In this document: positions 6,842-33,353 of the stretch, piece by piece | Numbering within the stretch: position 1 is the first letter of the stretch | Layout: every line of letters starts with the position of its first letter | Assembly: GCA_965197585.1 (NCBI GenBank) | Contig: OZ240215.1 | Coordinates: 1,216,001 to 1,280,000, forward strand | Source: Dehalococcoidia bacterium | Lineage (GTDB): Bacteria; Chloroflexota; Dehalococcoidia; Plut-88900 | Length of the DNA stretch: 64,000 nucleotides | Direction: 5' to 3' | Translations under genes and position numbers: made by a program | The notes under the pieces: generated by a model | Database searches by the model: none | Told to the model about the DNA's origin: nothing | The model's input: the letters and a program-made list of their open reading frames with translations, nothing else

Positions 6842-6981
6842 TACTCGCTTTCTCTATCTCCTCTCCCCCAACAAGCCCCAGATACCCCGAGGTGCGCGCC
6901 TCGCAAACCGCCCATCCCTAAGCGCCAATGCAGTGTCCTGTCCCCTCTCCCTAGATGTGACCTTTGCATAACTGTCATTCC

Positions 6982-8037
6982 TGTAAGTGTTAGGTAATTC
7001 GTTGACAGATTGGTATAAGAGGCCAACACCAATCTGGAGGCGAGAATGCGAGACAATAGCAAGGACCTCACCCTTGAGCGGAACTACATTCAGAAGTGGC
7101 GGTTCCTCATCCATGAGTATCAACTGGTCAAGGCAGGGAAGCATCCCCGTTTCCGCTTCGCCCAGGACTTCTACTCCTTCCACGGCACTAGCCGTCAGAC
7201 CTTCGCCAAGTACTACAACCGGTTCCTCCTTTCCCCCTCCGACAACGCCTTCCTCCCCCGTAAGCGGGGTCCCGGGTGGAAGTCCCGCCGCACCCTGCCC
7301 TACATTGAGCAGAAGGTCATCAACGAGCGCCTTAACGGTACCAACCGTTACGAGATCTATGCCATACTCAAACCCATCCTTAAACACAACACCCCTAAGC
7401 CCTCCACCATCTACGCCATCACCAGACGCCACGGTTTCAATAGGCTCACAAAGCCGATGCAGCAGTCGAAGCGCAAGATCATCAAGACCCGGGCAGGAGA
7501 GCTGGGCCACCTGGACAGCCACTACCTCAGCCGGGATACCATCGTGGGCACCAAGCACCGCTACTACCTGGTGGGCCTCATCGACGCCTACACCCGTCTG
7601 GCCTGGGCCGAAGTGGTCGGAGACATCAAGAGTCTCTCCGTTATGTTTGCTACTCTGAAGTCCATCAATTTCCTTAACGTGGAGTACGGCATCCAATTCG
7701 AGGCCATCCTCACCGACAACGGCCCCGAGATGGCCTCCCCAAGGAACACCGAGGGCCACCCCATGGAACGGATGCTCAATGAGCTGGGCATAAAGCACCG
7801 CTACACCCGCCCTTATAGGCCCCAGACCAACGGGAAGATAGAGCGGTTCTGGAGAACCTTGAACGAGGACCTGCTGGAGGGGACAACCTTCGAATCGGTC
7901 TCGGAACTGAAGGACGAGCTTCAGCAATACCTGATCTACTACAATACTCAGAGACCCCACCAGGCAATGGACGGAAAGACCCCTTTGGAGACCCTTAAAT
8001 CCACCTAATTCTGTCAACGAATTACCTGACATCCACA
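6982..8037 (+). mobile_element. IS481-family insertion sequence, copy 1 (1056 bp)
   Basis: TGT...ACA ends; 28-bp imperfect TIR (24/28 match, core AGGTAATTCGTTGACAGA); 5-bp ATTCC duplication at 6977-6981 and 8038-8042. Confidence 0.92.
7046..8008 (+). CDS. IS481-family DDE transposase (integrase core)
   Basis: GELGHLD, IDAYTR, LTDNGPE, RPYRPQTNGKIERFWRT and YYNTQRPHQAMDGKTP motifs. Confidence 0.93.
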   Translation: MRDNSKDLTLERNYIQKWRFLIHEYQLVKAGKHPRFRFAQDFYSFHGTSRQTFAKYYNRFLLSPSDNAFLPRKRGPGWKSRRTLPYIEQKVINERLNGTNRYEIYAILKPILKHNTPKPSTIYAITRRHGFNRLTKPMQQSKRKIIKTRAGELGHLDSHYLSRDTIVGTKHRYYLVGLIDAYTRLAWAEVVGDIKSLSVMFATLKSINFLNVEYGIQFEAILTDNGPEMASPRNTEGHPMERMLNELGIKHRYTRPYRPQTNGKIERFWRTLNEDLLEGTTFESVSELKDELQQYLIYYNTQRPHQAMDGKTPLETLKST

Positions 8038-8389
8038 ATTCCGAGGCTCCGCGAGGAATCTGGGGCGAGGGACTCAGGATTGGATAACATGTCTCGTATT
8101 GCCAATATGTTCCAGCATAGGGAGTTACGCAAAGGTCTCTCGATGGGCGAGGGCTAGGGCCGTAGGCTCGCTGAGGAGAGTGAGGGTGATCTCCCTTTCC
8201 GCTCCTATCCTTCCTCTTCCCCGTAGAAGTAATCCTCGTTGTTGCCCTGCACCAAGGCGTGACCCCTCGCATAACCGTCATTCTGGCCCCCGAGCCGGAA
8301 TCCATCCCCTCCCCGTAGAGGCAACGCTCGTGGTTGCTACAGCTCGGGGGGCGGGCTCACAAAGCACACCCTGCCCCCTCTCCCTTGGC

Positions 8390-8532
8390 GTGACCCTTGC
8401 ATAACTTGTGACAGAAGGGCCGCTCGTGCTGTCGCAGATCCGCCGAGGCGGGAGACCCGTCGAAGTATGAGCGGGGGGGGACGCCGATCAGAATAGCAAA
8501 TGGGGCTTGTTATGCAGTTACGCAAAGGACCC
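8390..8532. mobile_element. MITE family D copy 2, carrying a family B repeat with a ~20-nt insert
   Basis: GTGACCCTTGCATAACT ... AGTTACGCAAAGGACCC between CCCTCTCCC-TTGGC and TCGAT-GAAAGAGGGTGAGGGTGA. Confidence 0.65.
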
Positions 8533-8626
8533 TCGATGAAAGAGGGTGAGGGTGATATCAGATGACAAGTGAAGAGTGCACCTGTATTGATGAAGTTAGC
8601 GGTGTTAGTGCGCAGTTGCTCAAGCC

Positions 8627-9391
8627 CTACCCAGCCAACCCACACACGAGAATCTGGTGATTGTCCCCCGACTCAAATGTCTTTGACTCGAAATCACCAT
8701 ACTTGGCACGCACCTCGAACCCGTTGTACTTGAGCAAAGCCTCCAGCTCCAGCGGGAAGTACATCCGAATGCTGATATGCTCGCTCGGCTGCTCTTCCAC
8801 GCAGGGCAGCGAGTAATGGAGAGTCAGGTGCTGGACCTGGGTCGCGGTATCGTAGACGCTGCTGAAGTCTACCCGCACTATTCCATCGCCGTTGGGGTGT
8901 TCGTATTCTAGGAAGGGCGACCTCTCCCCCTCCCCCCGATTCAGAATCTCCATCGAGGGGTTGTATAGCTCCATTATGAACAGGCCTCCCGGCGATAGAT
9001 GCTCCTTCACCCGAGACAGGCACCCCTCCAGGTCCTCAATTGTCAGCATACGGGAGATGCTCTGGGAAGGGCAGATAATAAGCGGGAACGTCTTCCCAAG
9101 CGAGAAGTACCGCATGTCTGCCTTCACCCACTCGACGTCGAGCCCCCCCTCCTCGGAGTTCCTCCCCGCCTGCTCAAGCATCGACTCCGCCAGGTCGATT
9201 CCCATCACCTCAAACCCTTCACGGGCCAGCGGCATCGCTATCCTTCCCGTCCCGCAAGCCAATTCCAGGATCGGCCCGCCGTAACGCCTCGCCTGCCCGA
9301 CCCAGAAATCCACGTCTTCCGTAAAGTTACTGTAAGCCAGATCGTAGTGCCGACCGTCCAGGTAGGTGCGTTGTAAGTTGCTGGAGCTCAT
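8627..9391 (-). CDS. Class I SAM-dependent methyltransferase
   Basis: ILELACGTGR, GIDLA and ADMR motifs. Confidence 0.88.
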   Translation of the reverse strand: MSSSNLQRTYLDGRHYDLAYSNFTEDVDFWVGQARRYGGPILELACGTGRIAMPLAREGFEVMGIDLAESMLEQAGRNSEEGGLDVEWVKADMRYFSLGKTFPLIICPSQSISRMLTIEDLEGCLSRVKEHLSPGGLFIMELYNPSMEILNRGEGERSPFLEYEHPNGDGIVRVDFSSVYDTATQVQHLTLHYSLPCVEEQPSEHISIRMYFPLELEALLKYNGFEVRAKYGDFESKTFESGDNHQILVCGLAG

Positions 9392-9400
9392 CAGTGCGGT

Positions 9401-10651
9401 CTACCCCGGAACACTTACATCCTGCGCCTCAGCGAAGAAGTCGATCCGCGCCTGCTCGTCGAGAGCCCTGTCAGGCCCGAGGTAGAACGCGTGGAGGTGA
9501 CCAAAGGGGTCCAGCTTCATCTTGGGCACCACCCGTGAGCGCAGGTCCCGAGACTTCGGGTCCATCAGCAGATGGGACGTCCAGACCTCGAAAGTGTGGT
9601 TGATCGCATAGAACGCATCATGGGCGGCTGCATACGAGTGGCCCGCCTGCTCCCAGTCCTGATTCGAGACCAAAGCATCTTTCAATAACCGGGCATCTCG
9701 TAGGCTAGTTGAAAGCCCTTGTCCCCAGGTCGGGTCCCCCGTCGAGGCCGCATCCCCGATTAACGCAATGCCGTCCTTAAAGGGGTGATCGACCCACGCG
9801 TGGGCACCGTCAAACGTGGCAAGAGGCCCCGCAGGCCTCGCCCCCGAGAATACGTCCTCCGGCGCTCCCGTCGACAGAAACCCTTCTATGAAGTGTTCCC
9901 CGTCCTTCGCGCCGCTGAGTCTATAGCCGGCATCCCATCGATGGCACAAGTAAGCCCGTACCCGACCCCGGCCCTGTGGAAACAGTATGGCAGCCAGTCC
10001 CGCATTCGGGTTGGCCCAGTGGTGCGCCGCGTCATCAGCTACTCCCATGTCGTCGAAGAGCAGTCCGGCCACCAGGTTGGATTCCGGGTCCTTGTTCACC
10101 TGAAAGCCGCCCAACGCCCGGGTCTGCGAGGCCCGGCCATCCGCCCCCACCAGCATCCGGCAATTCACCTTCTCGGAGACCTCCCCATCGACTCGCACCG
10201 TCAGTACCCCTCCCTCCCTATCCAGCCCCTTGACCCGTGTCCCTCGCACCACCCTGACCTCTGCCGCCAACGCCGCGTCCATTAGGCTCTTCTGCAGTGT
10301 CGGGTGGTAGAACGTCAACGCCGATACCCCAGCTCCCGTGTCATTCACGAGGTCGCCGTGGAACATCCGCTTCGGGCCTCCGTACATGTCCAGCCAGAGG
10401 ATCCGATGTCCCCCCGCCCCGACTATGTCGTCGTAGATTCCCAACGCTTTCGTCTCGACCACGCCCCACGGGAAGATGAACTCCCCCCTGACCCTGTCCC
10501 TGAACTCCGTGGTCGCCTCGACTAGCAGTACGCCGTATCCGGCTCTCGCCATGGAAACAGCGAGACTCGCCCCTGCGATTCCCGCCCCGGCTACTACCAG
10601 GTCGTAAGTGTTCCCTCTCTTGTCTTTATTACCGTTATGTACAGTAGCCAT
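9401..10651 (-). CDS. FAD-dependent monooxygenase/oxidoreductase (group A, FAD_binding_3-like)
   Basis: GAGIAG, VGADG and LIGDAA..DPTWGQG fingerprints; start set at ATG 10651, overlapping the upstream stop. Confidence 0.85.
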   Translation of the reverse strand: MATVHNGNKDKRGNTYDLVVAGAGIAGASLAVSMARAGYGVLLVEATTEFRDRVRGEFIFPWGVVETKALGIYDDIVGAGGHRILWLDMYGGPKRMFHGDLVNDTGAGVSALTFYHPTLQKSLMDAALAAEVRVVRGTRVKGLDREGGVLTVRVDGEVSEKVNCRMLVGADGRASQTRALGGFQVNKDPESNLVAGLLFDDMGVADDAAHHWANPNAGLAAILFPQGRGRVRAYLCHRWDAGYRLSGAKDGEHFIEGFLSTGAPEDVFSGARPAGPLATFDGAHAWVDHPFKDGIALIGDAASTGDPTWGQGLSTSLRDARLLKDALVSNQDWEQAGHSYAAAHDAFYAINHTFEVWTSHLLMDPKSRDLRSRVVPKMKLDPFGHLHAFYLGPDRALDEQARIDFFAEAQDVSVPG

Positions 10652-13600
10652 TCCTAAGGTCCTGTTCCCGTATGTCCTCGTCACGCAGGGTCGGGTCTCC
10701 GTATCCCCCACCCCCTGCGGCGTAGCAAAGTATCGTGTCTCCCGGCTTAACCGGCACCCTCGTCTCCTTCGAACGGAGCACCCTCTCCCCGCCGTCTTCC
10801 GACACGATGCTGTATCGATGCGCCCAACCGGGTCTGCCTCCCAGCAGCCCGAAAGGCGGGTTAACGATTCCGTCCCCCGCAGTGTTCATCCTGGCTCCGG
10901 GTTCCCCCTCATAGACAAGCTCCACCACGCTCCCGAGACCGCCCCTCCACCGCCCATCGCCCCCGGAATCGGGCAGCAGTTCGTAGCGGGGTATGAAGAA
11001 GGGGAACCGCTCCTCGGTGACCTCCACGCTGGGGCTCCTGATGCCCCCCGCCACGTTGATCTCCCCGACGTTCGACCAGCCGTCGAACCCATCTGATGCC
11101 CCGCCTCCCCCGCGCCCGAGGAAGAAGTGCCAGATGAACCTCCTGCCGGTCTTGGGGTCTTCGCCCGTAATCGCGTACCTCAGTCGGCGGGAGAACCCTG
11201 CAGTCACTGCGTCGGGCACGGCATTTACCATGGCCCGGAAGACCGCCTCGACTATCTCTTCGCCGCAGTGGTTGGTGCTCATCGTCACCGGGGCCGGCGG
11301 GTTCGGGTTCACGATCAGCCCCTTCGGTGCAATGACGGTGATGGGTCTCATCGACCCCTCGTTCCTCGCCACGTCAAAAGGAGCCATATACATCAGCGAT
11401 ACATGGGCAAGTGAGCGGGTGTTCGCGTAGGCACTGTTGATAAAGCCCGTGACCTGTTTGCTCGACTCGCTCAGGTCGATGGTCATTTTGTCCCCGGCAA
11501 TCGTCACCGTGGCCCGGATCGGCACCATCTTCGCATCGAAACCGTCGTCATCGATGAACGATTCACCCTTGTACACGCCGTCGGGCCAGTTGGAGATCAT
11601 TTCCCTCACCTGCACCTCGGTCCCGTGCAGGATCTCATCCACTGCCCGGCTAAGCCCCTCTGCGCCATATCGTTCCAGCATGGCAATGATCCGCCGAGCC
11701 GCTATCCTCACCGACCCAAACTGCGCCTGAAAGTCCCCGAGAAAGTTCTCCGGATGACGCACGTTCGCCGAAAGCATCTGCAGCACGTCGTCTCTGGCAA
11801 CTCCCTTCTCGATCAGCTTCAGGGGTGGTATGCGTATACCCTCCTGGTATATCTCACTGGCCGAGGGGTTATACCCCCCGTGGGTCGCCCCGCCGACATC
11901 GCTGTGATGGGCGCGGTTTACGGCGAAGAACCGGAGTTTGCCATCGTAGAAGATCGGTTGGATGACAGTAATGTCGGGTATATGGCTTCCCCCGAAATAG
12001 GGATCGTTCAGGGCGAACATGTCCCCATCGTATATCCGGTCTCCGAAGTACTGCTTGACCGCCGCCCCAGCCAGGGGCAACGCGCTTATGTGGACCGGAA
12101 TTCCCTCGCCCTGGGCCACGAGCTGACAGTCGGCATCAATTATCGCCGTCGAAAAGTCTCTGCTGGAGTTCAGGATCTGCGACATCGACGTCCGAATCAT
12201 TACCTCAGCCATCTCCAGCGCAATAGTGTTCAACCGACTCTCAACCACGGCCACGGTAATCGGATCGGGCTTGCCACCCTTGTCGGTCTCAATCTCGTCC
12301 TCTTCTATCGCCACCTGCATTCTCATGCCGCCATAGCCATCGGCTATCGCTGTATCCCCTGCCTGTAGCAATATCGTCGTGAAGTTCGACTCGACGATCA
12401 CCGGCCCCTCCATCTCCCACGAGGCAGGCATTTTGTCCATGTCATAGACTGGGACATCCGCCCACCCGCCGAGATATACGCTCCGCTTACCCTTAAGCGC
12501 GTCCTCTAGCCTTCCCTTGCCCTCAGACTTGGGCAAATCCACCGGGTCAAGGGCCCCGAACACCGACGCCCGTAGCGTCACCAGCCTGACCTCCTGGTCC
12601 GACTGCTGATAGGAGTACAGCTCCTGGTACCGCCTGTGAAGGTTCGCCGACAACTGTTCCAATATCGCCGAGTCATCCTGCGACAGGTCAGGCACCGGCA
12701 CGTTGACCTCAAATATCTGGTCCAGGTACCGCATGTCCGCAGACACCGACACGCTGATATCCTCGTCCGACACACCCTGCTCCCGCAGCCTGGTCATGCC
12801 CCTCTCTCCCATCTCCGCCGATAACCGGCGCACCTCTCCCAGGTCTATGCTGTCCAGGCTGACCGGGTGCGACAGGGAGAAGTCGTACCGGAGGTCTGTC
12901 GAGAGCATTCCGTAGGCAGACTGCACCGGCGCCGTGGATGGCACGTATATCCTTTCGATGTGCAGCTGACGGGCCATCTCGCTTACGTGCAGCCCCGCCG
13001 ACCCCCCGAAGGCCAGCAGTGAGAAGTCCCGGGGATCGACCCCCCTTCTCGCCGCCAGCAGCCGTATCCCCTCCGCCATGTTCGTCGATACAACTTGATG
13101 TACTCCGAACGCAGCCTCCACCGTCGACATCCCCAGCCCGGCAAGTTCCTTATCTAATGCCTCTTCCGCCTTGGCCCTGTCCAACGACTCCCGTCCCCCC
13201 AGGAAATTCGTCGCCGAAAGAAACCCGAGTACAAGGTTGGAGTCCGCTACCGTTGGCTTGTCGCCGCCCTTGCCGTAGCAGGCAGGCCCGGGCTCTGCGC
13301 CCGCGCTCTCCGGCCCGACCCTCAGAATCCCCCCGGGATCAACCCGCGCTATGCTGCCGCCCCCCGCCCCCAGGGTGTGAATGTCGATCATCGGTACCGC
13401 TATCTTCCACCCCGCCTCGAACTGCTCCGTCGTCACGTGGGGAACGCCGTCTTCTATCAGGGATATGTCGGTGCTGGTGCCTCCCATGTCGAACCCGATA
13501 AGGTTGGCTTCGCCCACCAGGTCGCCGTAGCTCTTGGCCCCGGCCACCCCACCCGCCGGCCCCGACAGGATCGCCTTGACCGCCTGGTTCTTCGCATCAT

Positions 13601-15492: not shown

Positions 15493-15520
15493 TCGTAGTT
15501 GCATCGCCTAGGAGGATGAC

Positions 15521-16433: not shown

Positions 16434-16558
16434 CGTCATTCCGGCCCCCGAGCCGGAATCCGTCCTATCTCCCCGCCATTCCCGTGCCCCGACACGGGAA
16501 TCCATTCGCTGGGGCTGAGGGGCCGCTCGTGCTGAGCCCCGTGGAAGTATGAGCCGGG
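16434..16558. repeat. Cluster of REP-like palindromes: two family A, one family B (CCGCTCGTGCTGAG..GAAGTATGAGC)
   Basis: CGTCATTCCGGCCCCCGAGCCGGAATCC, CCATTCCCGTGCCCCGACACGGGAATCC and a B unit. Confidence 0.75.
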
Positions 16559-16678: not shown

Positions 16679-17812
16679 ATGCGCTTTGACATCACCCTCT
16701 ACACCCACGTCGGCGAGACCTACCCGTGGGAAAAGATAGTCGACGAGGCCGAAACCCAGGTCAAATTCGCCGACCAGGCCGGCTTCACCACCTTCTGGAT
16801 GGCCGAGCACCACTTCGCATGGGACGGCTGGTACAATTCCGCTCCCAACCCCATCCTCATGGGCACAAAGCTGTCCCGCCTCAGCGACAGGCTCAGGTTC
16901 GGACAGTGCGGAGTTGTACTACCAGACTGGCACCCCCTCCGCATCGCCGAGGACATCGCCCTCATGGACCAGTTCACCAAGGGCCGCGTGGACTTCGGCA
17001 TCGCCCGGGGCATAGATACCCGGGCCTCCATTCAGTTCAACCTCAACGCCGACAGGCGTAACCAGGAGTCCAACTACGCCCTCTTCTCCGAGTCCCTGGA
17101 CGTCATCATCGGCGCCTGGACACAGGACGCCTTCAGCCACGAAGGCAGATTCTACAAGTTCCCCGTCCCCGGCTGGATAGAGTCCAACCCCATGGTCCAA
17201 AATCCTGACTACCACGCCCCCAACGGCGAGCTGAAGGCCATGGGGGTCTTCCCAAAGCCCTTCCAGAAACCCCACCCCCCTATCTGGCAAATGGCCGACT
17301 CCCCCGGCTCCCACAGATTCGCTGGAAGCCGGGGCATGGGGGTCTTTTGCCAGTCCATATCCATCGGTAAGATTAAGGAGGCCTGGACCACCCACAACGA
17401 GGCGCTGTCTCAGTCCCAGAACCGCGAAGTCCCATTCGGAGAGAAACTCTGCATCGTCAGACCAACCTACGTCGCCGAGACCTATGAGCAGGCCATCGCC
17501 GACGTGAGTTGGGGCTCAAAGCAACTCGGCGCCTGGTACTCCCACAACCCCGTCAAAGCCTACTCCGCCATGGCAACCGAAGATGAGCTCGATCCCGGAG
17601 ACTTCGACCTCCCCTGGCTCGACTTCCAGCTCAAGCACGGCCTCGTCTGCGTCGGCACCCCAGAAACCATCTCCGAGCAGATCGAGAATCTCCAAAGCTC
17701 GGTTAACTGCGGACACATGGCCCTCTTCCTCAACTTCCCCGGCCTCACCTTCGAAAAGACCATGCGAAGCCTCACCCTTTTCGCCGAACAGGTAATGCCC
17801 AGGTTTCTCTAG
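16679..17812 (+). CDS. LLM-class flavin-dependent monooxygenase, tandem paralog 1
   Basis: WMAEHHF, HPLRIAEDIALMDQFTKGRVDFGIARG and PKPFQKPHPPIW motifs; MRFD start shared with the paralogs. Confidence 0.9.
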   Translation: MRFDITLYTHVGETYPWEKIVDEAETQVKFADQAGFTTFWMAEHHFAWDGWYNSAPNPILMGTKLSRLSDRLRFGQCGVVLPDWHPLRIAEDIALMDQFTKGRVDFGIARGIDTRASIQFNLNADRRNQESNYALFSESLDVIIGAWTQDAFSHEGRFYKFPVPGWIESNPMVQNPDYHAPNGELKAMGVFPKPFQKPHPPIWQMADSPGSHRFAGSRGMGVFCQSISIGKIKEAWTTHNEALSQSQNREVPFGEKLCIVRPTYVAETYEQAIADVSWGSKQLGAWYSHNPVKAYSAMATEDELDPGDFDLPWLDFQLKHGLVCVGTPETISEQIENLQSSVNCGHMALFLNFPGLTFEKTMRSLTLFAEQVMPRFL

Positions 17813-17905
17813 TTACCTAACCCCACCCCCTCCGTCAGTCCTTGCCAAAACCCTTCTCCGAAAGGGCGGACGTGGTCTCCAGTCCCCTCTCCCCTCTCCC
17901 ACAAC

Positions 17906-18028
17906 GGGACCTTTGCATAACCCGCGCCGGAGGGGCCAGGGCCGCTCGTGTTGAGGCTCTCGAAGTATGAGCGGGGGGAGGGAGGTAAGATGATCTGGAT
18001 GGCACCACAAGCGTGATCAGCAGTTACG
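17906..18028. mobile_element. MITE family D copy 3 (right end truncated), containing a family B repeat
   Basis: GGGACCTTTGCATAACC start; body closely matches 24106-24231. Confidence 0.6.
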
Positions 18029-18125
18029 GAGTGGCCCTGATTCAGAGGAAGCCACCCATGGTATATAATCACCGCGGCGGCACCCTGCATAAACATCAAC
18101 GCACACTCGACTCGGGAGACTAGGT

Positions 18126-19256
18126 ATGCGGTTCGACTCCACTCCTTACTACCATGTCGGCGAGGATTACGATTGGGAGACCCTCGTTGACGAGATGCGG
18201 GAAGAGGTCCGGCTCATGGACCAGGGCGGATTCACCGGCACCTGGCTCGCCGAGCACCACTTCCACTGGGACGGCTGGTACCGCGCCTCCCCCAACCCCA
18301 TCCTCCTCGGAGCCGACCTGGTCAGCGAAAGCGACCGGCTTCGCGTCGGCCAATGTGGCACCATCCTCCCCGACTGGAACCCCATCCGCGTCGCCGAGGA
18401 CATCGCCCTTCTCGACCAACTCACAAGAGGCCGGGTCGATTTCGGCGTGGCCCGAGGCATTAACAATCGTGCCACCATCCAATTCCGAGAGGAAGCCGAC
18501 CGCCGAAACGAACAGCACCGCGCTCTCTTCAATGAAACCCTTGAGGTCATTCTCGGTGCCTGGCGGAACGATGCCTTCTCATACAAGGGTGAGTTCTTCA
18601 CCTACCCCGCTCCCGGCTGGCAGGAGACCAATCCCTTGGGCCGCGACTCCAGGTTTCACAGCGAAACCGGCGAGCTCAAGGCCCTGGGGCTCACCCCGAA
18701 ACCCTTCCAGCGGCCCCACCCCCCCGTTTTCAACATGGTTGAGTCCTCCAGCTCCCACGCCTACTCGGCCCGGATGGGCATTGGAGCCATGTGCTTCTCG
18801 ATCTCCCACGGGCGCATCAACGACGCCTGGCGGGCCTACAACAACGCCGCCTCGGAGGCAGCGGGCCACGATGTCCCCTACGGGCAAAACCTGGCCGTAA
18901 TGCGCCCCACCTATATAGCCGACACCTACGAACAGGCGGTCGCCGACGCCCGGGAAGGCACAAACCTACTCGCCTCCTGGATAACCACCGACCCCGACAA
19001 AGTCCGCAAGATAATGGTCAGCGAAGAGGAGCTGGAAGAAGGCGACCTGGACTTGGACTGGTTCGACTTCCAGCTCAAGCACGACCTCATCCTCGTCGGC
19101 TCCCCCGACACCGTCTCCGAGCAGATCGAGCGTCTGGAGACCGAGACCGGATGCCCCCACCTCGCATTCTTCCTCAACATCCCGCTCCTATCCTTCCAAC
19201 AGGTCATGCACTCCTTGGACTTGGCCTCTTCGAAAGTGATTCCCCGGTTCGCCTAG
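18126..19256 (+). CDS. LLM-class flavin-dependent monooxygenase, tandem paralog 2
   Basis: WLAEHHF, RVAEDIALLDQLTRGRVDFG and PKPFQRPHPP motifs. Confidence 0.9.
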   Translation: MRFDSTPYYHVGEDYDWETLVDEMREEVRLMDQGGFTGTWLAEHHFHWDGWYRASPNPILLGADLVSESDRLRVGQCGTILPDWNPIRVAEDIALLDQLTRGRVDFGVARGINNRATIQFREEADRRNEQHRALFNETLEVILGAWRNDAFSYKGEFFTYPAPGWQETNPLGRDSRFHSETGELKALGLTPKPFQRPHPPVFNMVESSSSHAYSARMGIGAMCFSISHGRINDAWRAYNNAASEAAGHDVPYGQNLAVMRPTYIADTYEQAVADAREGTNLLASWITTDPDKVRKIMVSEEELEEGDLDLDWFDFQLKHDLILVGSPDTVSEQIERLETETGCPHLAFFLNIPLLSFQQVMHSLDLASSKVIPRFA

Positions 19257-19259
19257 CTT

Positions 19260-20393
19260 ATGAGATTCGACAGCACACCCTACTATCACGTCGGCGAGGA
19301 CTATTCCTGGCAGACCTTGGTCCGCGAGATGCGGGAAGAGGTCCGTCTCATGGACCAAGGAGGCTTTACCGGTCTCTGGCTTGCCGAGCACCATTTCGCC
19401 TGGGATGGCTGGTACCGTGCCCCGACCGACCCCATCCTGGTCGGCGCTGACCTCATTGCCGAAAGCGACAGGATGCGTGTCGGCCAGTGCGGCACCATCA
19501 TCCCCGACTGGAACCCCATCCGCGTCGCCGAGGACATAGCCATCCTCGACCAGCTGACCAAGGGCCGCGTCGACTTCGGCGCAGGGCGGGGAATCAACAC
19601 CCGCTCCACCATCCAGTTCTTCAAAGAAGCCGACCGCCGCGACCCCGAGCGCAACCGTGCCCTCTTCCGAGAAGCCCTCGAAATCATAGTCAGGGCGCTG
19701 GAAAACGACGCCTTCTCCTACAAGGGCGAGTTCTACACTTACCCGACACCCGGCTGGTATGAGTCCAACCCCCTGGTCCGGGACCCTAAGTACCACGCCG
19801 ATGACGGTGAGTTGATCGCCCTCGGCGTCACTCCCCGCCCCTACCAACAACCCCGACCCCCGGTCTACATCATGGCTGAAACCGTCGGCTCCTTCGGTTA
19901 CGCGGGAGAGAAGGGCTACAGCGCCATGTGCGCCTCCCTGTCCCCCGGTAGAATCAACGAGGCCTTCGCCGCCCACAACAAGGCCGCCGCCCAGAGGCTT
20001 GGGCGCCCCGTCCCTACCGGCGAGGGCGTCGCCGTCATGCGCCCAACCTTCCTCGCCGAGACCTACGAAGAGGCCGTGCAGGCCGTTCGTCCCGGGGCAA
20101 ATCGACTCGCTGCGTGGTCCTCCGTAAACCCCCACAAGGCGCGGCAGGCCACCCTAATCGAAGAGGAGATGGAAGAAGGAGACCTGGATTCCGACTGGTT
20201 CGACTTCCAGCTCAAGCACGACCTGATCATGGTCGGCTCACCTGACTCGGTATCCGAGCAGATTGAGCGCATCCAATCCAAAACCGGCTGCCAGCACATC
20301 GCCCTTTTCCTCAACTTCCCCGGCCTCTCTTTCCAACAGGTCATGAAGTCCCTACACCTCTTCTCCGACCGCATCATCCCCAAATTTTCCTAA
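19260..20393 (+). CDS. LLM-class flavin-dependent monooxygenase, tandem paralog 3
   Basis: Same motifs; starts 3 bp after the paralog 2 stop. Confidence 0.9.
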   Translation: MRFDSTPYYHVGEDYSWQTLVREMREEVRLMDQGGFTGLWLAEHHFAWDGWYRAPTDPILVGADLIAESDRMRVGQCGTIIPDWNPIRVAEDIAILDQLTKGRVDFGAGRGINTRSTIQFFKEADRRDPERNRALFREALEIIVRALENDAFSYKGEFYTYPTPGWYESNPLVRDPKYHADDGELIALGVTPRPYQQPRPPVYIMAETVGSFGYAGEKGYSAMCASLSPGRINEAFAAHNKAAAQRLGRPVPTGEGVAVMRPTFLAETYEEAVQAVRPGANRLAAWSSVNPHKARQATLIEEEMEEGDLDSDWFDFQLKHDLIMVGSPDSVSEQIERIQSKTGCQHIALFLNFPGLSFQQVMKSLHLFSDRIIPKFS

Positions 20394-20401
20394 CAAACAA
20401 T

Positions 20402-20440
20402 CCCCTCTCCCTTGACGGGAGAGGGCTAGGGTGAGGGTGA
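20402..20440. repeat. Intact palindrome family C (CCCTCTCCC-TTGAC-GGGAGAGGG-CTAGGGTGAGGGTGA), empty MITE target
   Basis: Perfect 9-bp stem with a 5-nt loop; split versions occur at 6942/8140, 8375/8533 and 26725/26872. Confidence 0.85.
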
Positions 20441-20489
20441 TTCGGACTCTTCAAAGATCATCCACCCCACACCAGGCACGAGGTGACAA

Positions 20490-21623
20490 ATGAGGTTCGA
20501 TTGCACGCCCTACTACCACGTGGGAGAGCAGTATTCCTGGGACACCCTGATGGACGAGATGCACCAGGAGGTTAAGCTCATCGACCAGGGAGGCTTCACA
20601 GGCCTGTGGCTCGCCGAGCACCACTTCGCCTGGGACGGCTGGTACCGCGCCTCCCCCAACCCCATTCTCATGGGCGCGGGCCTGATCAAGAACAGCGACC
20701 ACCTCAGGATCGGCCAGTGCGGTACCATCCTCCCCGACTGGCATCCCTTGCGCGTCGCCGAGGACATTGCCCTGCTGGATAACTTCACCGACGGACGCGT
20801 CGACTTCGGCATCGCCCGTGGCTTCGACACCCGCGCCTCCGCCCAGTTCAGCTCCGCTGGAGACCGCCGCAACCCCAAGCTCAACGCCGAGTTCTTCAAC
20901 GAGGCCCTCGACGTCATCATAGACGCCTGGAAACAGGAAGCTTTCCAATATCAGGGCAACCACTTTACTTTCCCTGAACCCGGCTGGCACGAACCCAACG
21001 AATGGGTCCGAGATCCCCGTTATCACGCCGCCGATGGCGAGATGGTCGCCCTCGGCGTACACCCCAAGCCTGTCCAGAAACCCCACCCACCCATCTTTCA
21101 GATGTCAACCTCCAACAGTTCCCACGAGTTGGCCGGCAGACGAGGCATATCCACAATGTGCCAGACTGTCTCCCTCGGCAAGATAAGGGAAATCTGGAAC
21201 ACATATTACGACGCCGCTAAGGAAGCGAGAGGCGAAGAGAACAACTTCGGCGACAAGCTCTCCGTGATGATCGCCACCTACGTCGCCGACACCATGGAAG
21301 AAGCCTTGGAAGCCGTCAGGCCTGGTGCCAATATGCTGGGCGTGTGGAACAAGCGGGACCCGATGAAGGCCTCCAGAGACTCGTTTGTAGAGGGCGAAAT
21401 AGAAGACGGCGACTTAGACCTGGACTGGTTCGACTTCCAGAGGAAGCACGACCTCATAATGGTCGGCACCCCGGACTCGGTAGCCGAGCAGATCGAACGC
21501 TACCGTACCGAGCTGAACTGCCAGCACATCGCCCTCTTCCTGAATTTCCCGGGTCTAAGCTTCCAGCAGGTGATGCGAAGCCTCACCCTCTTCACCGAGC
21601 AGGTCATACCCCGGTTCAACTAA
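20490..21623 (+). CDS. LLM-class flavin-dependent monooxygenase, tandem paralog 4
   Basis: Same motifs; GAGGTG RBS. Confidence 0.9.
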   Translation: MRFDCTPYYHVGEQYSWDTLMDEMHQEVKLIDQGGFTGLWLAEHHFAWDGWYRASPNPILMGAGLIKNSDHLRIGQCGTILPDWHPLRVAEDIALLDNFTDGRVDFGIARGFDTRASAQFSSAGDRRNPKLNAEFFNEALDVIIDAWKQEAFQYQGNHFTFPEPGWHEPNEWVRDPRYHAADGEMVALGVHPKPVQKPHPPIFQMSTSNSSHELAGRRGISTMCQTVSLGKIREIWNTYYDAAKEARGEENNFGDKLSVMIATYVADTMEEALEAVRPGANMLGVWNKRDPMKASRDSFVEGEIEDGDLDLDWFDFQRKHDLIMVGTPDSVAEQIERYRTELNCQHIALFLNFPGLSFQQVMRSLTLFTEQVIPRFN

Positions 21624-26489: not shown

Positions 26490-26739
26490 CGTTTCACCTC
26501 TCCAGCAAAAGCCCGCATTTTTCTTCCCGTGTGAAACCCTTGAATAACCGTCATTCCCGCTCCCGAGTCGGCCTCCTTATCCCCACGGGCGGGGCATTCC
26601 GTTCGCCCTGCCTAAGATGCTGCAAGTGCTTCTTTGGCGTGCGCCGAGGCGTGAGCAGAGTCGAAGCCTTTCCTGAGGCTCCCGAAGGGTATCCCAAGAA
26701 TTGAATGATGTGCGAGCGTTCCATCCCCTCTCCCTTGAT

Positions 26740-26871
26740 GAGATCTTTGTCTAACCTCCCGCGGTGGGGCCGGGGCCGCTCGTGCTGAGGCTCTCGAAGT
26801 ATGAGCGGGGGGTGGAGGTCACGTGATCTGGACAGTACTGCAGAAGCAACCTGTAGTTGTGCAAAGGTCTC
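26740..26871. mobile_element. MITE family D copy 5, in the loop of palindrome C
   Basis: CCCTCTCCC-TTGAT-[GAGATCTTTG...GCAAAGGTCTC]-TTGAC-GGGAGAGGG. Confidence 0.75.
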
Positions 26872-26995
26872 TTGACGGGAGAGGGCTAGGGTCCAAGACT
26901 CGCTGAGGAGAACGACGGTGAATTCTACAAAGCCACTCACGCACCTTATGTAACGAAGCTCCTCCCGGACCCACCCATCGACGCATTATGTCGAA

Positions 26996-28132: not shown

Positions 28133-28277
28133 ATTCTTCTTACACCCTTTCAGTTATGGCTTGTGTTCCGTGGTCCTCCACCCCATAGGGGCAACCGGCT
28201 GGTCAGCCCTGCCCATATACAGCCGGATACGCTAAGCGAATCCACTTGGAGAGTCAATACAGCGCACCGCTCCACGT

Positions 28278-28306
28278 TTGCCGTATGCCGTGCCCGACTG
28301 TATAAT
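28278..28306 (+). promoter_or_regulatory. Sigma70-type promoter TTGCCG-17-TATAAT
   Basis: Perfect -10 hexamer with 17-nt spacing upstream of ATG 28379. Confidence 0.65.
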
Positions 28307-28378
28307 CCACTGAACAGAGCCCCGGCTAGCGACCCTTGCGCCAGGGCTCTTGTTACGAAATCCCGGCCTAGAGGCTTC

Positions 28379-31300
28379 ATGTACTTCGACCTGAGACTGT
28401 TCCAGCTAACGCAGGGCGTTCGGCTCCGTATCTTTCTTTCCACAGTGCTGGGGCTTATTGCCGTTGGGGCCGGGGTTGCGGGTCTCGCCATCTTCGGCAT
28501 AGTCATCGCCCGGGTCTTTCGCGGACAAGCCGAGTATTCTTCCCTTGCTTTTCCCATGATCGGCGTCGCTATCCTCATTGGCGTCCGGGGAGTATTCCAA
28601 TACCTGCAGAACAGCTACGCCCACCACACTTCCAACATCGTCAAGATCAAGATTCGTGAGAATCTTTACCAGCACTGCCTAGCCCTTGGCCCGGGTCACT
28701 TCGACCAGCGACGCACCGGTGGCGTGATCCTCACCCTCGGCGATGGCGTCGAGGGACTGGAGACCTTCTTCGGCCAATACCTCCCACAGATCATCATTGC
28801 CGCCGTCGCCCCGATTCTCATCTTCGTATTCATGGCCATCCTGGACCTGCCCATCGCTCTTATCTTCCTCGGCTTCGCCCTCTTCACCCTCGTCGCCCCG
28901 GCGGTCTTCCACAGCTGGAACCAGAAGAGCAGCATGCACCGCTACCGCTCCTACGGCTCCCTGGGCGCCGACTTCCTGGACGGTGTGCAGGGTCTTGCCA
29001 CCCTGAAGGCCTACGGCCAAAGTGGCCGACACGGCGATCGGCTGGCGGACAAGGCCCGTGCCCTTTATCGAAGCACTATGGGTGTCCTCGCCGCCAACAT
29101 AGCCACCGGCGGCGTTACCGTGCTGGGAATCTCTGCCGGTGCAGCCGTCGCCCTCGGCGTGGGAGCAGCCCGAGTCAGCGCCGGCGACATGGAGATTCGA
29201 ACTCTCCTGATCGTCATGATGTTCGGCGTCGAGGTCTTCAGGCCTCTCCGGGAACTGACCCAGCTCTATCACAAGGGCATGATCGCAAGTGCAGCCGCGC
29301 AGAGCATCTTCAACCTAATGGCAGAGCCCGTCGAGATCGAAGGCTCCCAGGCCGCACCCACTCCCGACACCCCTCAGACCGCTCCCCTCGCCGCCGAAAT
29401 CCGCTTCGAAAACGTTACCTTCGGCTACAATCAGGGCCGGGGCAACGCCCTTGAGGACGTATCATTCACCCTGGGCAAGAGTGAAAAGCTCGGTGTGGCG
29501 GGGCCAAGTGGCGCAGGAAAATCGACCCTCGTCTGGCTGGCATATCGCTTCTTCGATCCTCAGAAGGGCCGCATCCTCCTCGGCGGAGAGGACTTGAAAA
29601 CCCTTCCCCTCGAACGAATCCGAGAGCAGATCGCCGTCGTCACCCAGGACACCTACCTGTTTCATGGTACCGTCGCCGACAACCTCAGGTTCGGCAAGGG
29701 CGACGCTACTCAGAAAGAGCTGGAAGCCGCCGCCCGAGCCGCCAATGCCCACGAGTTCATCTCCGAGCTTCCCCAGGGCTACGACACCTATGTGGGTGAG
29801 AGGGCCATCCGCCTCTCAGGTGGGCAGCGGCAGCGTATCGCCATCGCTCGGGCCCTCTTGAAGGATGCCCCAATCCTTATCCTCGACGAGGCCCTGTCCA
29901 GCGTGGACGCCGAGAACGAGGCCGTCATCCAGGAAGCCCTGGACCGCCTCATGCAGGGTCGTACCACCCTGATAATCGCACACCGACTCTCCAGCATCGT
30001 CGGCGCCGACCGTATCCTGGTATTGGAAGACAGCCATCTAGTCGAAGTAGGTTCCCACGACGAGCTTATCGCCGCCGACGGTATCTACGCCCGGCTCATG
30101 GCCGACCAGCAGACCGCCGGGTTTGCCTCCCGCCCGGCAAATATCCCCACCGTAGACCAGCTCACCAGCGCCGTCGTTGGCCTAGCCTCCCCACCCCACG
30201 AGGAAGAACCCATCCCTGCGCCGGCCGCTCTTGAGGATTCCTACCCGATGGGCGCGTTCACAATCCTCCGGAGGTTGATGACCCTCATCGTCCCCTGGTG
30301 GAAACAGCAGACCGTCACTTTCCTCTTGGGCATAGCCCATCACGGCTCCATAATCGGCCTTGGCGTGATCAGCGCGTTGCTGGTCGGCGAGGTGTTCCGG
30401 GGCGGGGACCTGACCCTATACCTCATCCTCCTCGCGGTCTTTGCCCCGCTTACCGCATTCTTCACATGGGCCGAGGGCTGGCTCGCCCACGACCTCGCCT
30501 ACAGGCTCCTCGCCGAGATGCGTATCGACATGTACCGCAAGATGGACGCCATCGCCCCCGCCTATCTGGTTAAACGCAGGTCTGGGGACATCGTAGGTGT
30601 CGTCGGCGGAGACATCGAGAAGATCGAGTATTTCTTCGCCCACACCATCAGCCCGGCCTTCGTGGCCTTTGTCGTGCCCCTTGCCGTCCTCATCACCCTT
30701 GCCCTCATCTCCTGGCCTCTGGCAATTGTTCTCTTGCCTTTCCTCCTAGCCGTCGCAATCCGACCCTTCTACGACCAGACTACCAACGAACGTCTCGGCG
30801 ACGAGGTGCTGAGCAAGCTCGGCGGCATCCATGCCCAGATGGTCGATAACATCCAGGGAATGCGGGAGATATCAGCCTTCGGCCAGGGCCCCGCTAGGAC
30901 CGGCGACATCCGAGAACGGGGTTGGGACTTCGCAGGGAGCCAGCTCAAGTTCAAGAAGGCCCAGGAGTCCCAGACCTCCTTCATAGAATCGATCACAGGT
31001 CTCGGGGGTCTGGCAGTGCTGGCAATGGGCGCATGGCTCGTTCTGGAAGGCAGAATGGACCGACCTGACCTGCCTCTAGCCGCCCTCCTTGCCCTATCAA
31101 CCTTCTCTCCCGTGTCGGACCTCGCCCGCACCGGCAAGGACCTCATGGAGACCCTCGCCGCAGGCCGCCGGGTCTTCGCCGTCCACGATGAACCTATGTC
31201 CGTCCAGGACGGCCCCGGGGTAGCCGCACCCGGAGAGGTAGCAGTGCCCACAGCGCCCTTGGTCCGCTTCGACGGTACTTCCTTCTCTTACGGTCCGGGC

Positions 31301-32023
31301 CTTTCCCAGGCCATCTCCGATCTCAGCTTCACCATTGAGCCCGGTCAAACCGTTGCCCTTGTCGGAAGGTCGGGGGCGGGTAAAAGCACCTGCGCCTATC
31401 TCCTAATGCGCTTTTGGGATCCTCAGTCCGGCGAGGTCTCCCTGGGCAATCACAACCTTAAGGAATTCCGGCTCGACCCCCTGCGAGACAGCATCGCCTT
31501 CGTCACCCAGGACACCTATCTCTTCAACGCCAGCATCGGGGACAACATCGCCTTGGGCAAATTCGGGGCTTCCCAGGAAGAGATTGAGGAAGCCGCCCAG
31601 CAGGCCAATGCTCACGGCTTCATATCCTCCTTCCCCGAAGGCTATGACACCATGGTCGGCGAGCGGGGAATGCAGCTTTCCGGCGGTCAGCGCCAGCGCA
31701 TTTCCATCGCCCGGGCCCTCTTAAAGAACGCCCCAGTCCTCATCCTCGACGAGGCTACCTCTCACCTCGACGCTGTCAGCGAGCATCAGGTGCGTCAAGC
31801 CCTCAACCTCCTCATGTCCGGCAGAAGCACAGTAATCATCGCCCACCGGCTCTCCACAGTCCGAGACGCCGACAAGCTGATAGTCCTGGACCGTGGCCGC
31901 AAGGTTGAAGAGGGCAGCCACGACGAATTAATGGAGCGAAACGGCCTCTACGCCCAACTGGTCGCCGCCCAGATGGTTAGCTCCGCACCCCGCCCCACCC
32001 AACCCACCCCCGAACCCTCCTAA
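28379..32023 (+). CDS. Full-length fused ABC exporter (TMD-NBD-TMD-NBD; CydDC/YbtPQ-like halves)
   Basis: Two Walker A motifs (GPSGAGKS, GRSGAGKS), two LSGGQRQR signatures, two LILDEA motifs and two AHRLS motifs; start set at MYFDLRLF. Confidence 0.9.
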   Translation: MYFDLRLFQLTQGVRLRIFLSTVLGLIAVGAGVAGLAIFGIVIARVFRGQAEYSSLAFPMIGVAILIGVRGVFQYLQNSYAHHTSNIVKIKIRENLYQHCLALGPGHFDQRRTGGVILTLGDGVEGLETFFGQYLPQIIIAAVAPILIFVFMAILDLPIALIFLGFALFTLVAPAVFHSWNQKSSMHRYRSYGSLGADFLDGVQGLATLKAYGQSGRHGDRLADKARALYRSTMGVLAANIATGGVTVLGISAGAAVALGVGAARVSAGDMEIRTLLIVMMFGVEVFRPLRELTQLYHKGMIASAAAQSIFNLMAEPVEIEGSQAAPTPDTPQTAPLAAEIRFENVTFGYNQGRGNALEDVSFTLGKSEKLGVAGPSGAGKSTLVWLAYRFFDPQKGRILLGGEDLKTLPLERIREQIAVVTQDTYLFHGTVADNLRFGKGDATQKELEAAARAANAHEFISELPQGYDTYVGERAIRLSGGQRQRIAIARALLKDAPILILDEALSSVDAENEAVIQEALDRLMQGRTTLIIAHRLSSIVGADRILVLEDSHLVEVGSHDELIAADGIYARLMADQQTAGFASRPANIPTVDQLTSAVVGLASPPHEEEPIPAPAALEDSYPMGAFTILRRLMTLIVPWWKQQTVTFLLGIAHHGSIIGLGVISALLVGEVFRGGDLTLYLILLAVFAPLTAFFTWAEGWLAHDLAYRLLAEMRIDMYRKMDAIAPAYLVKRRSGDIVGVVGGDIEKIEYFFAHTISPAFVAFVVPLAVLITLALISWPLAIVLLPFLLAVAIRPFYDQTTNERLGDEVLSKLGGIHAQMVDNIQGMREISAFGQGPARTGDIRERGWDFAGSQLKFKKAQESQTSFIESITGLGGLAVLAMGAWLVLEGRMDRPDLPLAALLALSTFSPVSDLARTGKDLMETLAAGRRVFAVHDEPMSVQDGPGVAAPGEVAVPTAPLVRFDGTSFSYGPGLSQAISDLSFTIEPGQTVALVGRSGAGKSTCAYLLMRFWDPQSGEVSLGNHNLKEFRLDPLRDSIAFVTQDTYLFNASIGDNIALGKFGASQEEIEEAAQQANAHGFISSFPEGYDTMVGERGMQLSGGQRQRISIARALLKNAPVLILDEATSHLDAVSEHQVRQALNLLMSGRSTVIIAHRLSTVRDADKLIVLDRGRKVEEGSHDELMERNGLYAQLVAAQMVSSAPRPTQPTPEPS

Positions 32024-32219
32024 CCCACCGCGCCTCCCTCTCCAACCTCGTCATTCCGGCCGCCGAGGCGTGAATCCATCCTTGGGGAGGGGCCGCTCAT
32101 CCTGAGCTTGCTGTAAGTCCGCTGAGGCGGATCGAAGGGTCGAGCGGGGGTGGTCCACACATTGCCGATCCGTCGCGTCCGCCCCTCCCCCACTCCAACC
32201 CCCTTAACCCTGTCATTCC

Positions 32220-33275
32220 TGTAAGTGTTAGGTAATTCGTTGACAGATTGGTATAAGAGGCCAACACCAATCTGGAGGCGAGAATGCGAGACAATAGCAA
32301 GGACCTCACCCTTGAGCGGAACTACATTCAGAAGTGGCGGTTCCTCATCCATGAGTATCAACTGGTCAAGGCAGGGAAGCATCCCCGTTTCCGCTTCGCC
32401 CAGGACTTCTACTCCTTCCACGGCACTAGCCGTCAGACCTTCGCCAAGTACTACAACCGGTTCCTCCTCTCCCCCTCCGACAACGCCTTCCTCCCCCGTA
32501 AGCGGGGCCCCGGGTGGAAGTCCCGCCGCACCCTGCCCTACATCGAGCAGAAGGTCATCAACGAGCGCCTTAACGGTACCAACCGTTACGAGATCTATGC
32601 CATACTCAAACCCATCCTTAAACACAACACCCCTAAGCCCTCCACCATCTACGCCATCACCAGACGCCACGGTTTCAATAGGCTCACAAAGCCGATGCAG
32701 CAGTCGAAGCGCAAGATCATCAAGACCCGGGCAGGAGAGCTGGGCCACCTGGACAGCCACTACCTCAGCCGGGATACCATCGTGGGCACCAAGCACCGCT
32801 ACTACCTGGTGGGCCTCATCGACGCCTACACCCGTCTGGCCTGGGCCGAAGTGGTCGGAGACATCAAGAGTCTCTCCGTTATGTTTGCTACTCTGAAGTC
32901 CATCAATTTCCTTAACGTGGAGTACGGCATCCAATTCGAGGCCATCCTCACCGACAACGGCCCCGAGATGGCCTCCCCAAGGAACACCGAGGGCCACCCC
33001 ATGGAACGGATGCTCAATGAGCTGGGCATAAAGCACCGCTACACCCGACCCTATAGGCCCCAGACCAACGGGAAGATAGAGCGGTTCTGGAGAACCTTGA
33101 ACGAGGACCTGCTGGAGGGGACAACCTTCGAATCGGTCTCGGAACTGAAGGACGAGCTTCAGCAGTACCTGATCTACTACAATACTCAACGACCCCACCA
33201 GGCAATGGACGGAAAGACCCCTTTGGAGACCCTTAAATCCACCTAATTCTGTCAACGAATTACCTGACATCCACA
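32220..33275 (+). mobile_element. IS481-family insertion sequence, copy 2 (1056 bp)
   Basis: Same TIRs as copy 1; ATTCC duplication at 32215-32219 and 33276-33280 inside a family A repeat. Confidence 0.92.
32284..33246 (+). CDS. IS481-family transposase, protein identical to copy 1
   Basis: 320 aa; same DDE motifs. Confidence 0.93.
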   Translation: MRDNSKDLTLERNYIQKWRFLIHEYQLVKAGKHPRFRFAQDFYSFHGTSRQTFAKYYNRFLLSPSDNAFLPRKRGPGWKSRRTLPYIEQKVINERLNGTNRYEIYAILKPILKHNTPKPSTIYAITRRHGFNRLTKPMQQSKRKIIKTRAGELGHLDSHYLSRDTIVGTKHRYYLVGLIDAYTRLAWAEVVGDIKSLSVMFATLKSINFLNVEYGIQFEAILTDNGPEMASPRNTEGHPMERMLNELGIKHRYTRPYRPQTNGKIERFWRTLNEDLLEGTTFESVSELKDELQQYLIYYNTQRPHQAMDGKTPLETLKST

Positions 33276-33353
33276 ATTCCGATGCCCCGCGAGGAATCTA
33301 GGACTTGTCCTCTCACGCCCTTCCTAGTCTTCCTTCCCCTCCCCCCTGGTAAC

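Follow-up and report, generated by a model that had tools for sequence, protein, structure and literature searches.

Several bacterial insertion sequences (IS elements) are known to insert into repetitive extragenic palindromic (REP) sequences. Tobes and Pareja (2006; PMC1525189) compiled IS1397, ISKpn1 and ISPsy8 of the IS3 family, IS621, ISPa11, ISPpu9 and ISPpu10 of the IS110 family, and also ISRm22 (IS4), ISRm5 (IS256) and ISNm1106 (IS5); the term IS481 does not occur in the part of that article available to us. More recently, an IS481-family element was located at one REP position in Pseudomonas fluorescens SBW25, and the authors suggested that REPs are its target (PMC11708052, mBio 2024). 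PMC5524665 merely mentions the family in the part available. The present analysis concerns a 64,000-nucleotide stretch of the genome of a Dehalococcoidia bacterium (assembly GCA_965197585.1, contig OZ240215.1, positions 1,216,001 to 1,280,000), hereafter the window, in which two copies of an IS481-like element lie at the same bond of a short REP-like repeat. The original prediction, made from the window alone, named no REP targeting by an IS481-family DDE element with this repeat type; because of the SBW25 element such targeting is already in print, though for a different element.

The repeats themselves recall a second described system. Neisseria genomes carry repeats called NTS, with the consensus CGTCATTCCCGCGMAVGCGGGAATCYRG, which are bound and cut as single-stranded DNA by SsnA, a small GIY-YIG protein (PMC11893778, Nat Commun 2025). 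According to the accessible text of the same paper, cleavage is sensitive to the three bases that precede the palindrome and binding to the C that follows it, and NTS-like motifs (SRM) accompany ssn genes in several phyla. The term IS481 does not occur in that text, the supplements being outside the scope of the search.

Insertion of the element at a fixed bond

The genome that contains the window (label G000) is one contig of 3,429,519 bp with 59% G+C. Copy 1 of the element occupies window positions 6982-8037 and copy 2 positions 32220-33275, both on the plus strand; each is 1056 bp long, and the two are 99.2% identical. Their limits follow from the alignment of these two copies and from the 21 full-length copies that BLASTN finds in the 3.43-Mb genome. 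The element ends in imperfect inverted repeats of about 28 bp, TGTAAG... and ...CCACA; in copy 1 the left repeat (6982-7009, plus strand) begins with TGT and pairs with the reverse complement of the right repeat (8010-8037, plus strand), which ends with ACA as read from the sequence and the copy alignment. The inner part of the left repeat, AATTCGTTGACA, is retained in most relatives. A single open reading frame, called at 7046-8008 on the plus strand, encodes a transposase of 320 amino acids, and the corresponding frame of copy 2 lies at 32284-33246.

Both copies are preceded by the motif GTCATTCC on the plus strand, at 6974-6981 for copy 1 and 32212-32219 for copy 2. The last five bases of the motif (6977-6981 and 32215-32219) are the left copy of an ATTCC duplication. 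At copy 1, the right copy of the duplication (8038-8042) and the remaining A-type repeat, ATTCCGAGGCTCCGCGAGGAAT, fill 8038-8059 (plus strand), ATTCC being followed by GAGGCTCCGCGAGGAATCT. At copy 2 the right duplication copy and the remaining repeat, ATTCCGATGCCCCGCGAGGAAT, fill 33276-33297 (plus strand), and ATTCC is followed by GATGCCCCGCGAGGAATCT. The original prediction had described these two copies, their positions, their common orientation and their duplication correctly. Its remark that only two copies are visible holds within the window, whereas the genome as a whole has 21.

The element is a recently active insertion sequence. Sixteen of the 21 genomic copies are at least 99.2% identical (five are at 100%, copy 1 counted), two are at 96.5% and three at 88.9-89.7%; 19 of the 21 retain an uninterrupted transposase frame of 319-320 amino acids. 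The original prediction had asked whether other copies would lack the repeat context seen in the window, and they do not: GTCATTCC adjoins 20 of the 21 copies. A perfect 5-bp ATTCC duplication is present at 19 of them; at the two others the left flank has been lost (genome position 964286) or an extra C is present (1679032). The left end of the element lies beside GTCATTCC in 13 copies and the right end in seven (binomial p 0.26). Three 100%-identical copies have flanks that are merely 87-88% identical over about 215 bp; because the flanks diverge, these three are separate insertions into members of a larger repeat and not one duplicated segment.

The genes that flank copy 1 are conserved in three genomes of our set (G005, G002 and G003), but the repeat content of the intergenic spacer is different there, so no simple pair of occupied and empty sites was found for this copy. 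The spacer itself (window 6879-8450), compared with loci L162-L164 of those three genomes, measures about 43 bp in G005 and G002; in the present genome it contains the element together with assorted small repeats that add up to about 500 bp. Given that difference, the repeat content of orthologous spacers turns over fast between species. Logan contigs over window positions 6400-8600 are short unitigs, and among the pieces listed none bridges the element or an empty site and none carries a circle junction. Many of these contigs cease to match the window at 6972-6974, just to the left of the element, an observation from which nothing firm is drawn.

The repeats that contain the motif are independent of the element. 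In the window, GTCATTCC occurs nine times against 2.5 expected, and none of 100 shuffles reaches nine; in the genome, with element copies removed, there are 239 occurrences where base composition predicts 91. At 101 of these 239 sites the motif is followed by a stem (ATTCC..GGAAT) of 5 bp or more. Several stem types can be told apart, of which A (GAKGCYCCGCGAGG) is the commonest and B to F have perfect 8-bp stems. The genome holds 84 empty repeats under the strict pattern, and all nine same-genus genomes hold between 84 and 206 strict repeats each, compared with 0-2 for a reversed-pattern control; G004, G006 and G007 have strict repeats, and the transposase was not found in them. The two empty A-type repeats named by the original prediction exist, on the plus strand at 4353-4377 (GTCATTCCGAGGCTCCGCGAGGAAT) and 34193-34217. 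An unoccupied B-type repeat with a perfect 8-bp stem, GTCATTCCGGCCCCCGAGCCGGAAT, lies at 16435-16459 on the same strand. An Rfam search of the window found no family covering the repeats.

Further features of the repeats were observed in passing. Many of them contain, directly before AATCC, a nested module of about 22 nt that is a short hairpin in its own right (CTGTAAGTGCGCC..GGCGTG or CTGAAAGTCCGCC..GGCGGA), for example at genome positions 2227315, 2113513, 2295154 and 1395810, all outside the window; it also occurs within another repeat type (CCGCTCACCCTGAGC..) and resembles a tiny insertion of its own. The strand of the repeats tracks the sign of the GC skew in the present genome, with 46 on the plus and five on the minus strand at 1.0-2.6 Mb (negative skew) and eight on the plus and 22 on the minus strand at 0.6-1.0 and 2.6-3.0 Mb (positive skew). 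The listed repeats in G001, G004 and G008 likewise change strand along the chromosome. This bias suggests a connection with the direction of replication or with the way genes are oriented.

The target in other genomes and lineages

Within the genus, G002, G003 and G008 also carry the element (84% amino acid identity), and G001 has a pseudogene of it. In an initial set of 18 loci, every one lies at the same motif and both orientations are represented; one of them (in G003) is at a variant repeat, GTCCTTCC, where the duplication reads CTTCC. Scanning GTDB genomes revealed relatives at 43-75% identity in Dehalococcoidia, Nitrospirales, Coxiellaceae and other Gammaproteobacteria, Bacteroidota, Balneola, Bdellovibrionales, Alphaproteobacteria and others. 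Transposases that are 43-98% identical to the present one show the same insertion pattern in their flanks.

The original prediction had proposed that the flanks of all copies and of homologous elements be compared as a target logo. This was done with a cross-lineage set of 108 copies, from nine multi-copy genomes and 20 single loci. A perfect 5-bp duplication is present at 91 of them; the 17 others, which are recombinants, copies with mis-set ends (e.g. L058 and L052) or decayed copies, were excluded before counting. GTC lies directly 5' of the duplication, on one strand, at 90 of the 91 scorable copies, where 2.8 would be expected by chance. The duplication reads ATTCC at 58 copies, ATCCT at nine, ATCCC at eight, ATTGC and ATTTC at six each, ATTCT at two, and CTTCC and GCTCC at one each. 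In the logo, which is informative only outside the GTC positions because the sites were oriented by GTC, a pyrimidine stands at -4 (T 79%, C 20%), A and T at +1 and +2 (98-99%), a pyrimidine at +3, C at +4 and +5 (87-88%), S (G or C) at +6 and a purine at +7.

All copies were also fetched from five distant genomes: two Bdellovibrionales, one from Nitrospirales, a gammaproteobacterium and a Flavobacterium. In the Nitrospirales genome, 14 of 14 copies lie at CTGTC followed by ATCCT, ATCCC or ATTCT. One Bdellovibrionales genome has 12 of its 14 copies at GTC|ATTCC, the other two being reciprocal recombinants, and the second has both of its copies at the motif. Three of the four scorable copies in the gammaproteobacterium are at GTC|ATTGC and one is at ATC|ATTGC; for a fifth copy no ends could be assigned. 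The nine Flavobacterium copies all follow GTC and are at ATTTC, ATCCT, ATTCC or GCTCC. The element and its relatives insert at an exact position, with a 5-bp duplication, in both orientations and at a target conserved throughout the clade, and the site-specific insertion at one fixed bond that the original prediction had proposed is borne out by the counts of 20/21 in this genome and 90/91 among scorable relatives.

Hairpins with a GTCAT foot are abundant in distant genomes that carry the relatives, with 422 against one in the control for G041, 242 against 46 for G042, 230 against 48 for G044 (Flavobacterium) and 131 against 35 for G045; in G043 the excess is weak (65 against 38). In G044 and G045 such hairpins frequently form inverted pairs about 50-75 bp apart and alternating arrays, resembling REP doublets (REPINs) or bacterial interspersed mosaic elements (BIMEs). 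G042 and G045 also contain head-to-tail arrays of 20-bp units that include GTCATTCC.

A second IS481-like element was encountered in the same genus. It measures about 1.3-1.4 kb, has a 401-amino-acid frame that is about 30% identical and ends in TGTATAGACC, and is present in 14 copies in G008 (L171-L184) and at positions 2983346 and 2803582 of the present genome. Nearly all of the G008 copies lie between CCCCCTCTCCCTTA and TAAGGGAGAGGGGG, which is another palindromic repeat. Since this second element occupies a different repeat, permissive intergenic DNA alone does not explain the exact site, and the choice belongs to the element.

Recognition of motif or hairpin

The reading preferred here, which we hold at a probability of about 0.6, is that the transposase itself recognizes the motif as a sequence. 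On the evidence, YGTC|ATYCC appears to be the primary feature and the hairpin a secondary one. With sites that had been extracted too short set aside, roughly a dozen motif sites, in tandem arrays, truncated repeats or unrelated DNA, have no complement of the duplication even at one mismatch. At locus L034 the stem extends beyond the duplication, and the bond is still the one after GTC. Hairpin stability is not what the element selects, because the poorly folding A-type repeats are occupied more often than those with strong stems (14 of 55 A-type against three of 40 B- to F-type sites; Fisher p 0.03). When the repeats were folded as single-stranded DNA and compared with 200 shuffles, the two empty A-type repeats gave -2.2 and -2.3 kcal/mol (z +0.74 and +0.82; at 4353 and 34193, respectively), values matched by 154 and 158 of the shuffles, and the B-type repeat at 16435 gave -8.5 kcal/mol (z -3.43), matched by none. 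The original prediction had left open whether insertion is sequence- or hairpin-directed; the motif without a hairpin, the poor fold of the A-type repeat and a bond fixed to GTC lean towards sequence.

Several observations weigh against reading the motif alone. At 57 of the 91 sites the duplication is followed within 35 nt by its exact complement, compared with none of 91 in a reversed control. The 34 sites without it include tandem arrays and degenerate repeats, and also four Flavobacterium sites at which the extracted flank was too short and the complement is in fact present. The duplicated five bases are always the outer 5' arm of the hairpin, and both duplications that do not begin with AT (CTTCC in G003 and GCTCC in the Flavobacterium) lie at the feet of palindromes; the co-variation of duplication and complement across lineages is what structure-guided recognition would also give. 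In the present genome 19 of 142 GTCATTCC sites of the repeat family are occupied against one of 97 others (p 0.0005); the low figure outside the family fits selection against genic insertions and also a need for the repeat context. Outside frames of at least 150 codons the comparison becomes 14 of 78 family sites against none of 20 others (p 0.067), where several of the 20 are degenerate family members and the control, which uses crude stop-to-stop frames, has little power. A-type hairpins without GTC are empty in 11 of 11 informative cases, again with low power (p 0.24). Motif and hairpin cannot be separated inside this genome, because nearly all GTCATTCC outside long open reading frames belongs to the repeat family.

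In a structural alternative, the transposase would recognize the base of an extruded hairpin or cruciform, or of a single-stranded hairpin at a replication fork, together with the GTC tag, the duplication being the outer stem. We regard it as unlikely but worth serious attention. It would account for the duplication being the first five nucleotides of the 5' arm in every hairpin type, for the co-variation within a single Flavobacterium genome (ATTTC..GAAAT, ATCCT..AGGAT, GCTCC..GGAGC and ATTCC..GGAAT) as well as across lineages, and for locus L064, where a relative of 43% identity lies at GTC|ACCC(T/C), the foot of a ACCCTGAA..TTCAGGGT stem; the tracking of GC-skew sign by repeat orientation is also what action on one strand would produce. 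The most-used repeat type is nevertheless a poor hairpin and the strong stems are less used, some insertions lie in tandem arrays or in degenerate repeats without a complement, the stem at L034 runs past the duplication while the bond remains GTC|A, and the solved complexes that resemble the structure model show DDE transposases of the same fold on duplex targets. A host protein that binds or nicks the repeats, such as an Ssn-like GIY-YIG nuclease, might instead mark the site for insertion, a proposal that seems improbable. In its favour, foot and tail are the same in the repeats and in the NTS, the single-stranded substrate of SsnA, whose cleavage is sensitive to the three bases just before the palindrome (PMC11893778), small GIY-YIG open frames exist in the genome, one of them about 107 bp from an IS copy, and insertion of IS elements into existing breaks has already been proposed (PMC11708052). 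That 91 of 108 copies have a regular 5-bp duplication at one bond suggests normal staggered strand transfer instead; Ssn cleavage falls upstream of the NTS, not at the GTC|A bond, according to the oligonucleotide description in the accessible text (PMC11893778), the GIY-YIG frames are only candidates for the Ssn family, and the published SRM pattern matches none of the 21 target sites.

Two further explanations would remove targeting altogether. If insertion were random or weakly biased and survived only in harmless intergenic repeats, the apparent site would be an artefact of selection, and about 90% of the genome does lie in open frames of at least 150 codons, so that most random insertions would be genic. 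Such selection cannot yield one bond and one duplication in 20 of 21 copies, nor in 90 of 91 across phyla; the different IS481-like element of the same genus uses a different repeat, and the reversed-pattern and shuffle controls are near zero. We consider this very improbable. Scarcely credible is the suggestion, which the original prediction had itself raised, that the repeat half beside the element belongs to the element. A few copies are flanked by inverted GTCATTCC..GGAATGAC (L031, L063, L052, L147 and L005 of G001), mimicking longer inverted repeats, but the odd copies are matched by reciprocal partners (L140 and L147, in one genome), a pattern that recombination between copies would produce. 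The repeat half is not part of the element, because seven of the 20 copies are reversed in the repeat and intact repeats abound in genomes without the element. In addition, no solo ends or miniature inverted-repeat transposable elements were found in the present genome, all 42 end matches falling within the 21 full copies.

Under recognition of the motif by the transposase, a single IS481-like DDE transposase would drive the active insertion sequence, and integration would proceed by strand transfer with a 5-bp stagger at a single bond, GTC^ATTCC here and YGTC^ATYCC in the wider clade. The motif is the conserved 5' foot of abundant short hairpin repeats already in the genome and would be read by the transposase in duplex DNA, the hairpin being mostly where the motif happens to lie and a place of harmless insertion. 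That the transposase and not a host factor recognizes the target, and that duplex DNA is the substrate, we infer from the arguments above; the structure model, in which helical N-terminal modules precede the catalytic core as in DNA-binding DDE transposases, is consistent with it. Transposition may be of the copy-out/paste-in kind, by analogy with what is assumed for IS3- and IS481-like elements. The idea that the target mimics the ends of the element was also considered: read backwards, the target (GGAATGACAG) shares TGACAG with the inner inverted repeat. This argument was dropped because some lineages with the GTCAT target have TAACA or TGATG as their inner repeat.

The transposase, the repeats and their relatives

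Elements of the IS481 family typically have inverted repeats that begin with TGT and end with ACA, a length of about 1-1.5 kb and a short target duplication. The present element has these traits, and its single DDE (rve-type) frame lacks the programmed frameshift of IS3, as in IS481 of Bordetella and its family. The transposase matches the Pfam domains rve_3, rve and rve_2. Its best IS model in NCBIfam is transpos_IS481 (NF033577), which it matches over positions 18-283 of 284 with 184.4 bits, under the curated cut-off of 224; the IS3 model comes next with 82.6 bits. The family named by the original prediction is therefore retained as the best match only, and the element is called IS481-like. 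IS481 proper prefers a short CTAG-centred 6-bp site, which differs from the target described here. In the plasmid collection, tblastn gave no match at E 1e-40 and no annotated named relative was found.

Residues D157, D224 and E266 are invariant in an alignment of 12 sequences and invariant or at least 90% conserved in one of 48, from which L041 and L060 (stops in frame) and L062, L064 and L066 were left out. A structure model based on the 48-row alignment (mean pLDDT, the predicted local distance difference test, of 85) places two helical modules in the N-terminal part (residues 9-142) and an RNase H-like core after them. Among solved structures it comes nearest to IstA of IS21 (E 1e-13), TnsB and retroviral integrases. 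As modelled, the protein is an ordinary DDE transposase with predicted N-terminal DNA-binding modules.

Most copies of the present element lie at a fixed position of a repeat that also occurs empty, which places it among the REP-targeting IS elements. As with those compiled by Tobes and Pareja (PMC1525189), most or all copies occupy a fixed place in short extragenic palindromes, and the repeats pre-exist and far outnumber the element. It differs from them, as they are described in the accessible text, in its transposase family, in a bond that lies at the outer foot of the stem beside a GTC tag, in a host genome without a REP-associated tyrosine transposase (RAYT) and in a target retained across several phyla. 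The SBW25 element, by its description, is about 1.3 kb long, has 49-bp inverted repeats and a 4-bp duplication, and resides in RAYT-type REPs and REPINs of one species (PMC11708052). The present element is set apart from it by its 1056 bp, ends of about 28 bp, 5-bp duplication and other repeat type, and by evidence that spans 108 copies in many lineages. Nothing was found in the literature on the present clade or the GTC|ATTCC bond, ISfinder and TnPedia being outside the scope of that search. What is new is a well-documented case with a target conserved across phyla; it is not the first repeat-targeting element of the IS481 family.

The repeats are not RAYT-type REPs in this genome, in which no Y1/RAYT gene (PF01797) was found, while six of 14 control genomes match. 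The Flavobacterium genome (G044) has a Y1 gene with hairpins of the GTCGCTCC/GTCGCCC type at its flanks, and one of the nine IS copies there lies in such a hairpin. Closer likeness exists to the NTS and SRM as described (PMC11893778), in that the foot GTCATTCC and the tail GGAATC are common to both, the repeats are oriented, abundant and present in several phyla, and Bdellovibrionales targets such as GTCATTCCCGCGAAGGCGGGAATC are nearly the NTS consensus, with those of G042 and G045 close to it. The stems of the present repeats differ from that of the NTS, and a degenerate SRM pattern taken from the same paper matches none of the 21 target sites and 32 places in the genome, compared with 33 in a reversed-genome control. 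The link to NTS and Ssn is a resemblance in foot and tail and not a demonstrated membership.

Seven matches to PF01541 were found in the present genome, including open frames of 122 and 104 codons. Small single-domain GIY-YIG frames lie at genome positions 2898680-2898892 (minus strand) and 3308410-3308616. About 107 bp separate the 122-codon frame from the IS copy at 2897518-2898573, whose insertion has divided the adjacent repeat. The small frames have no NCBIfam match and no informative PDB match, and are candidates for Ssn-like nucleases.

Two other features of the window stand apart from the element. A cobalamin riboswitch (RF00174) at 62385-62568 on the plus strand, with 105.8 bits, was the sole Rfam match. 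Four tandem units of about 1.1-1.4 kb at 16679-21539, mutually 62-80% identical (families D1 and D2), probably represent paralogous genes in a row or a protein with internal repeats.

To our knowledge, few DDE transposases are target-specific, and site choice is loose in most insertion sequences with this fold. A small one-protein element with an exact bond and a cross-phylum target is a tractable model for target reading by DDE transposases. If recognition is autonomous and takes place on duplex DNA, the element would represent a naturally occurring, sequence-specific integrase of the transposase type that needs protein only. In principle it also offers a lead for site-directed integration. 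For annotation, the finding accounts for the constant short context of these elements and for assembly breaks there. A mobile element is thereby also connected with the hairpin repeats of the Ssn type, which were described only recently in Neisseria and elsewhere. A wider picture can be put forward tentatively, with rather more doubt than confidence: a clade of single-protein DDE transposases of about 320 amino acids, spread over at least six phylum-level lineages and hard-wired for a target of about 9-10 bp, YGTC^ATYCC, may have tracked pan-bacterial Ssn/NTS-type hairpin repeats as safe landing pads and may read the same GTC tag as the unrelated Ssn nucleases. Every insertion parts the GTC tag from the hairpin, and if this picture is true, the elements would shape Ssn sites and, by splitting the repeat, inactivate them.

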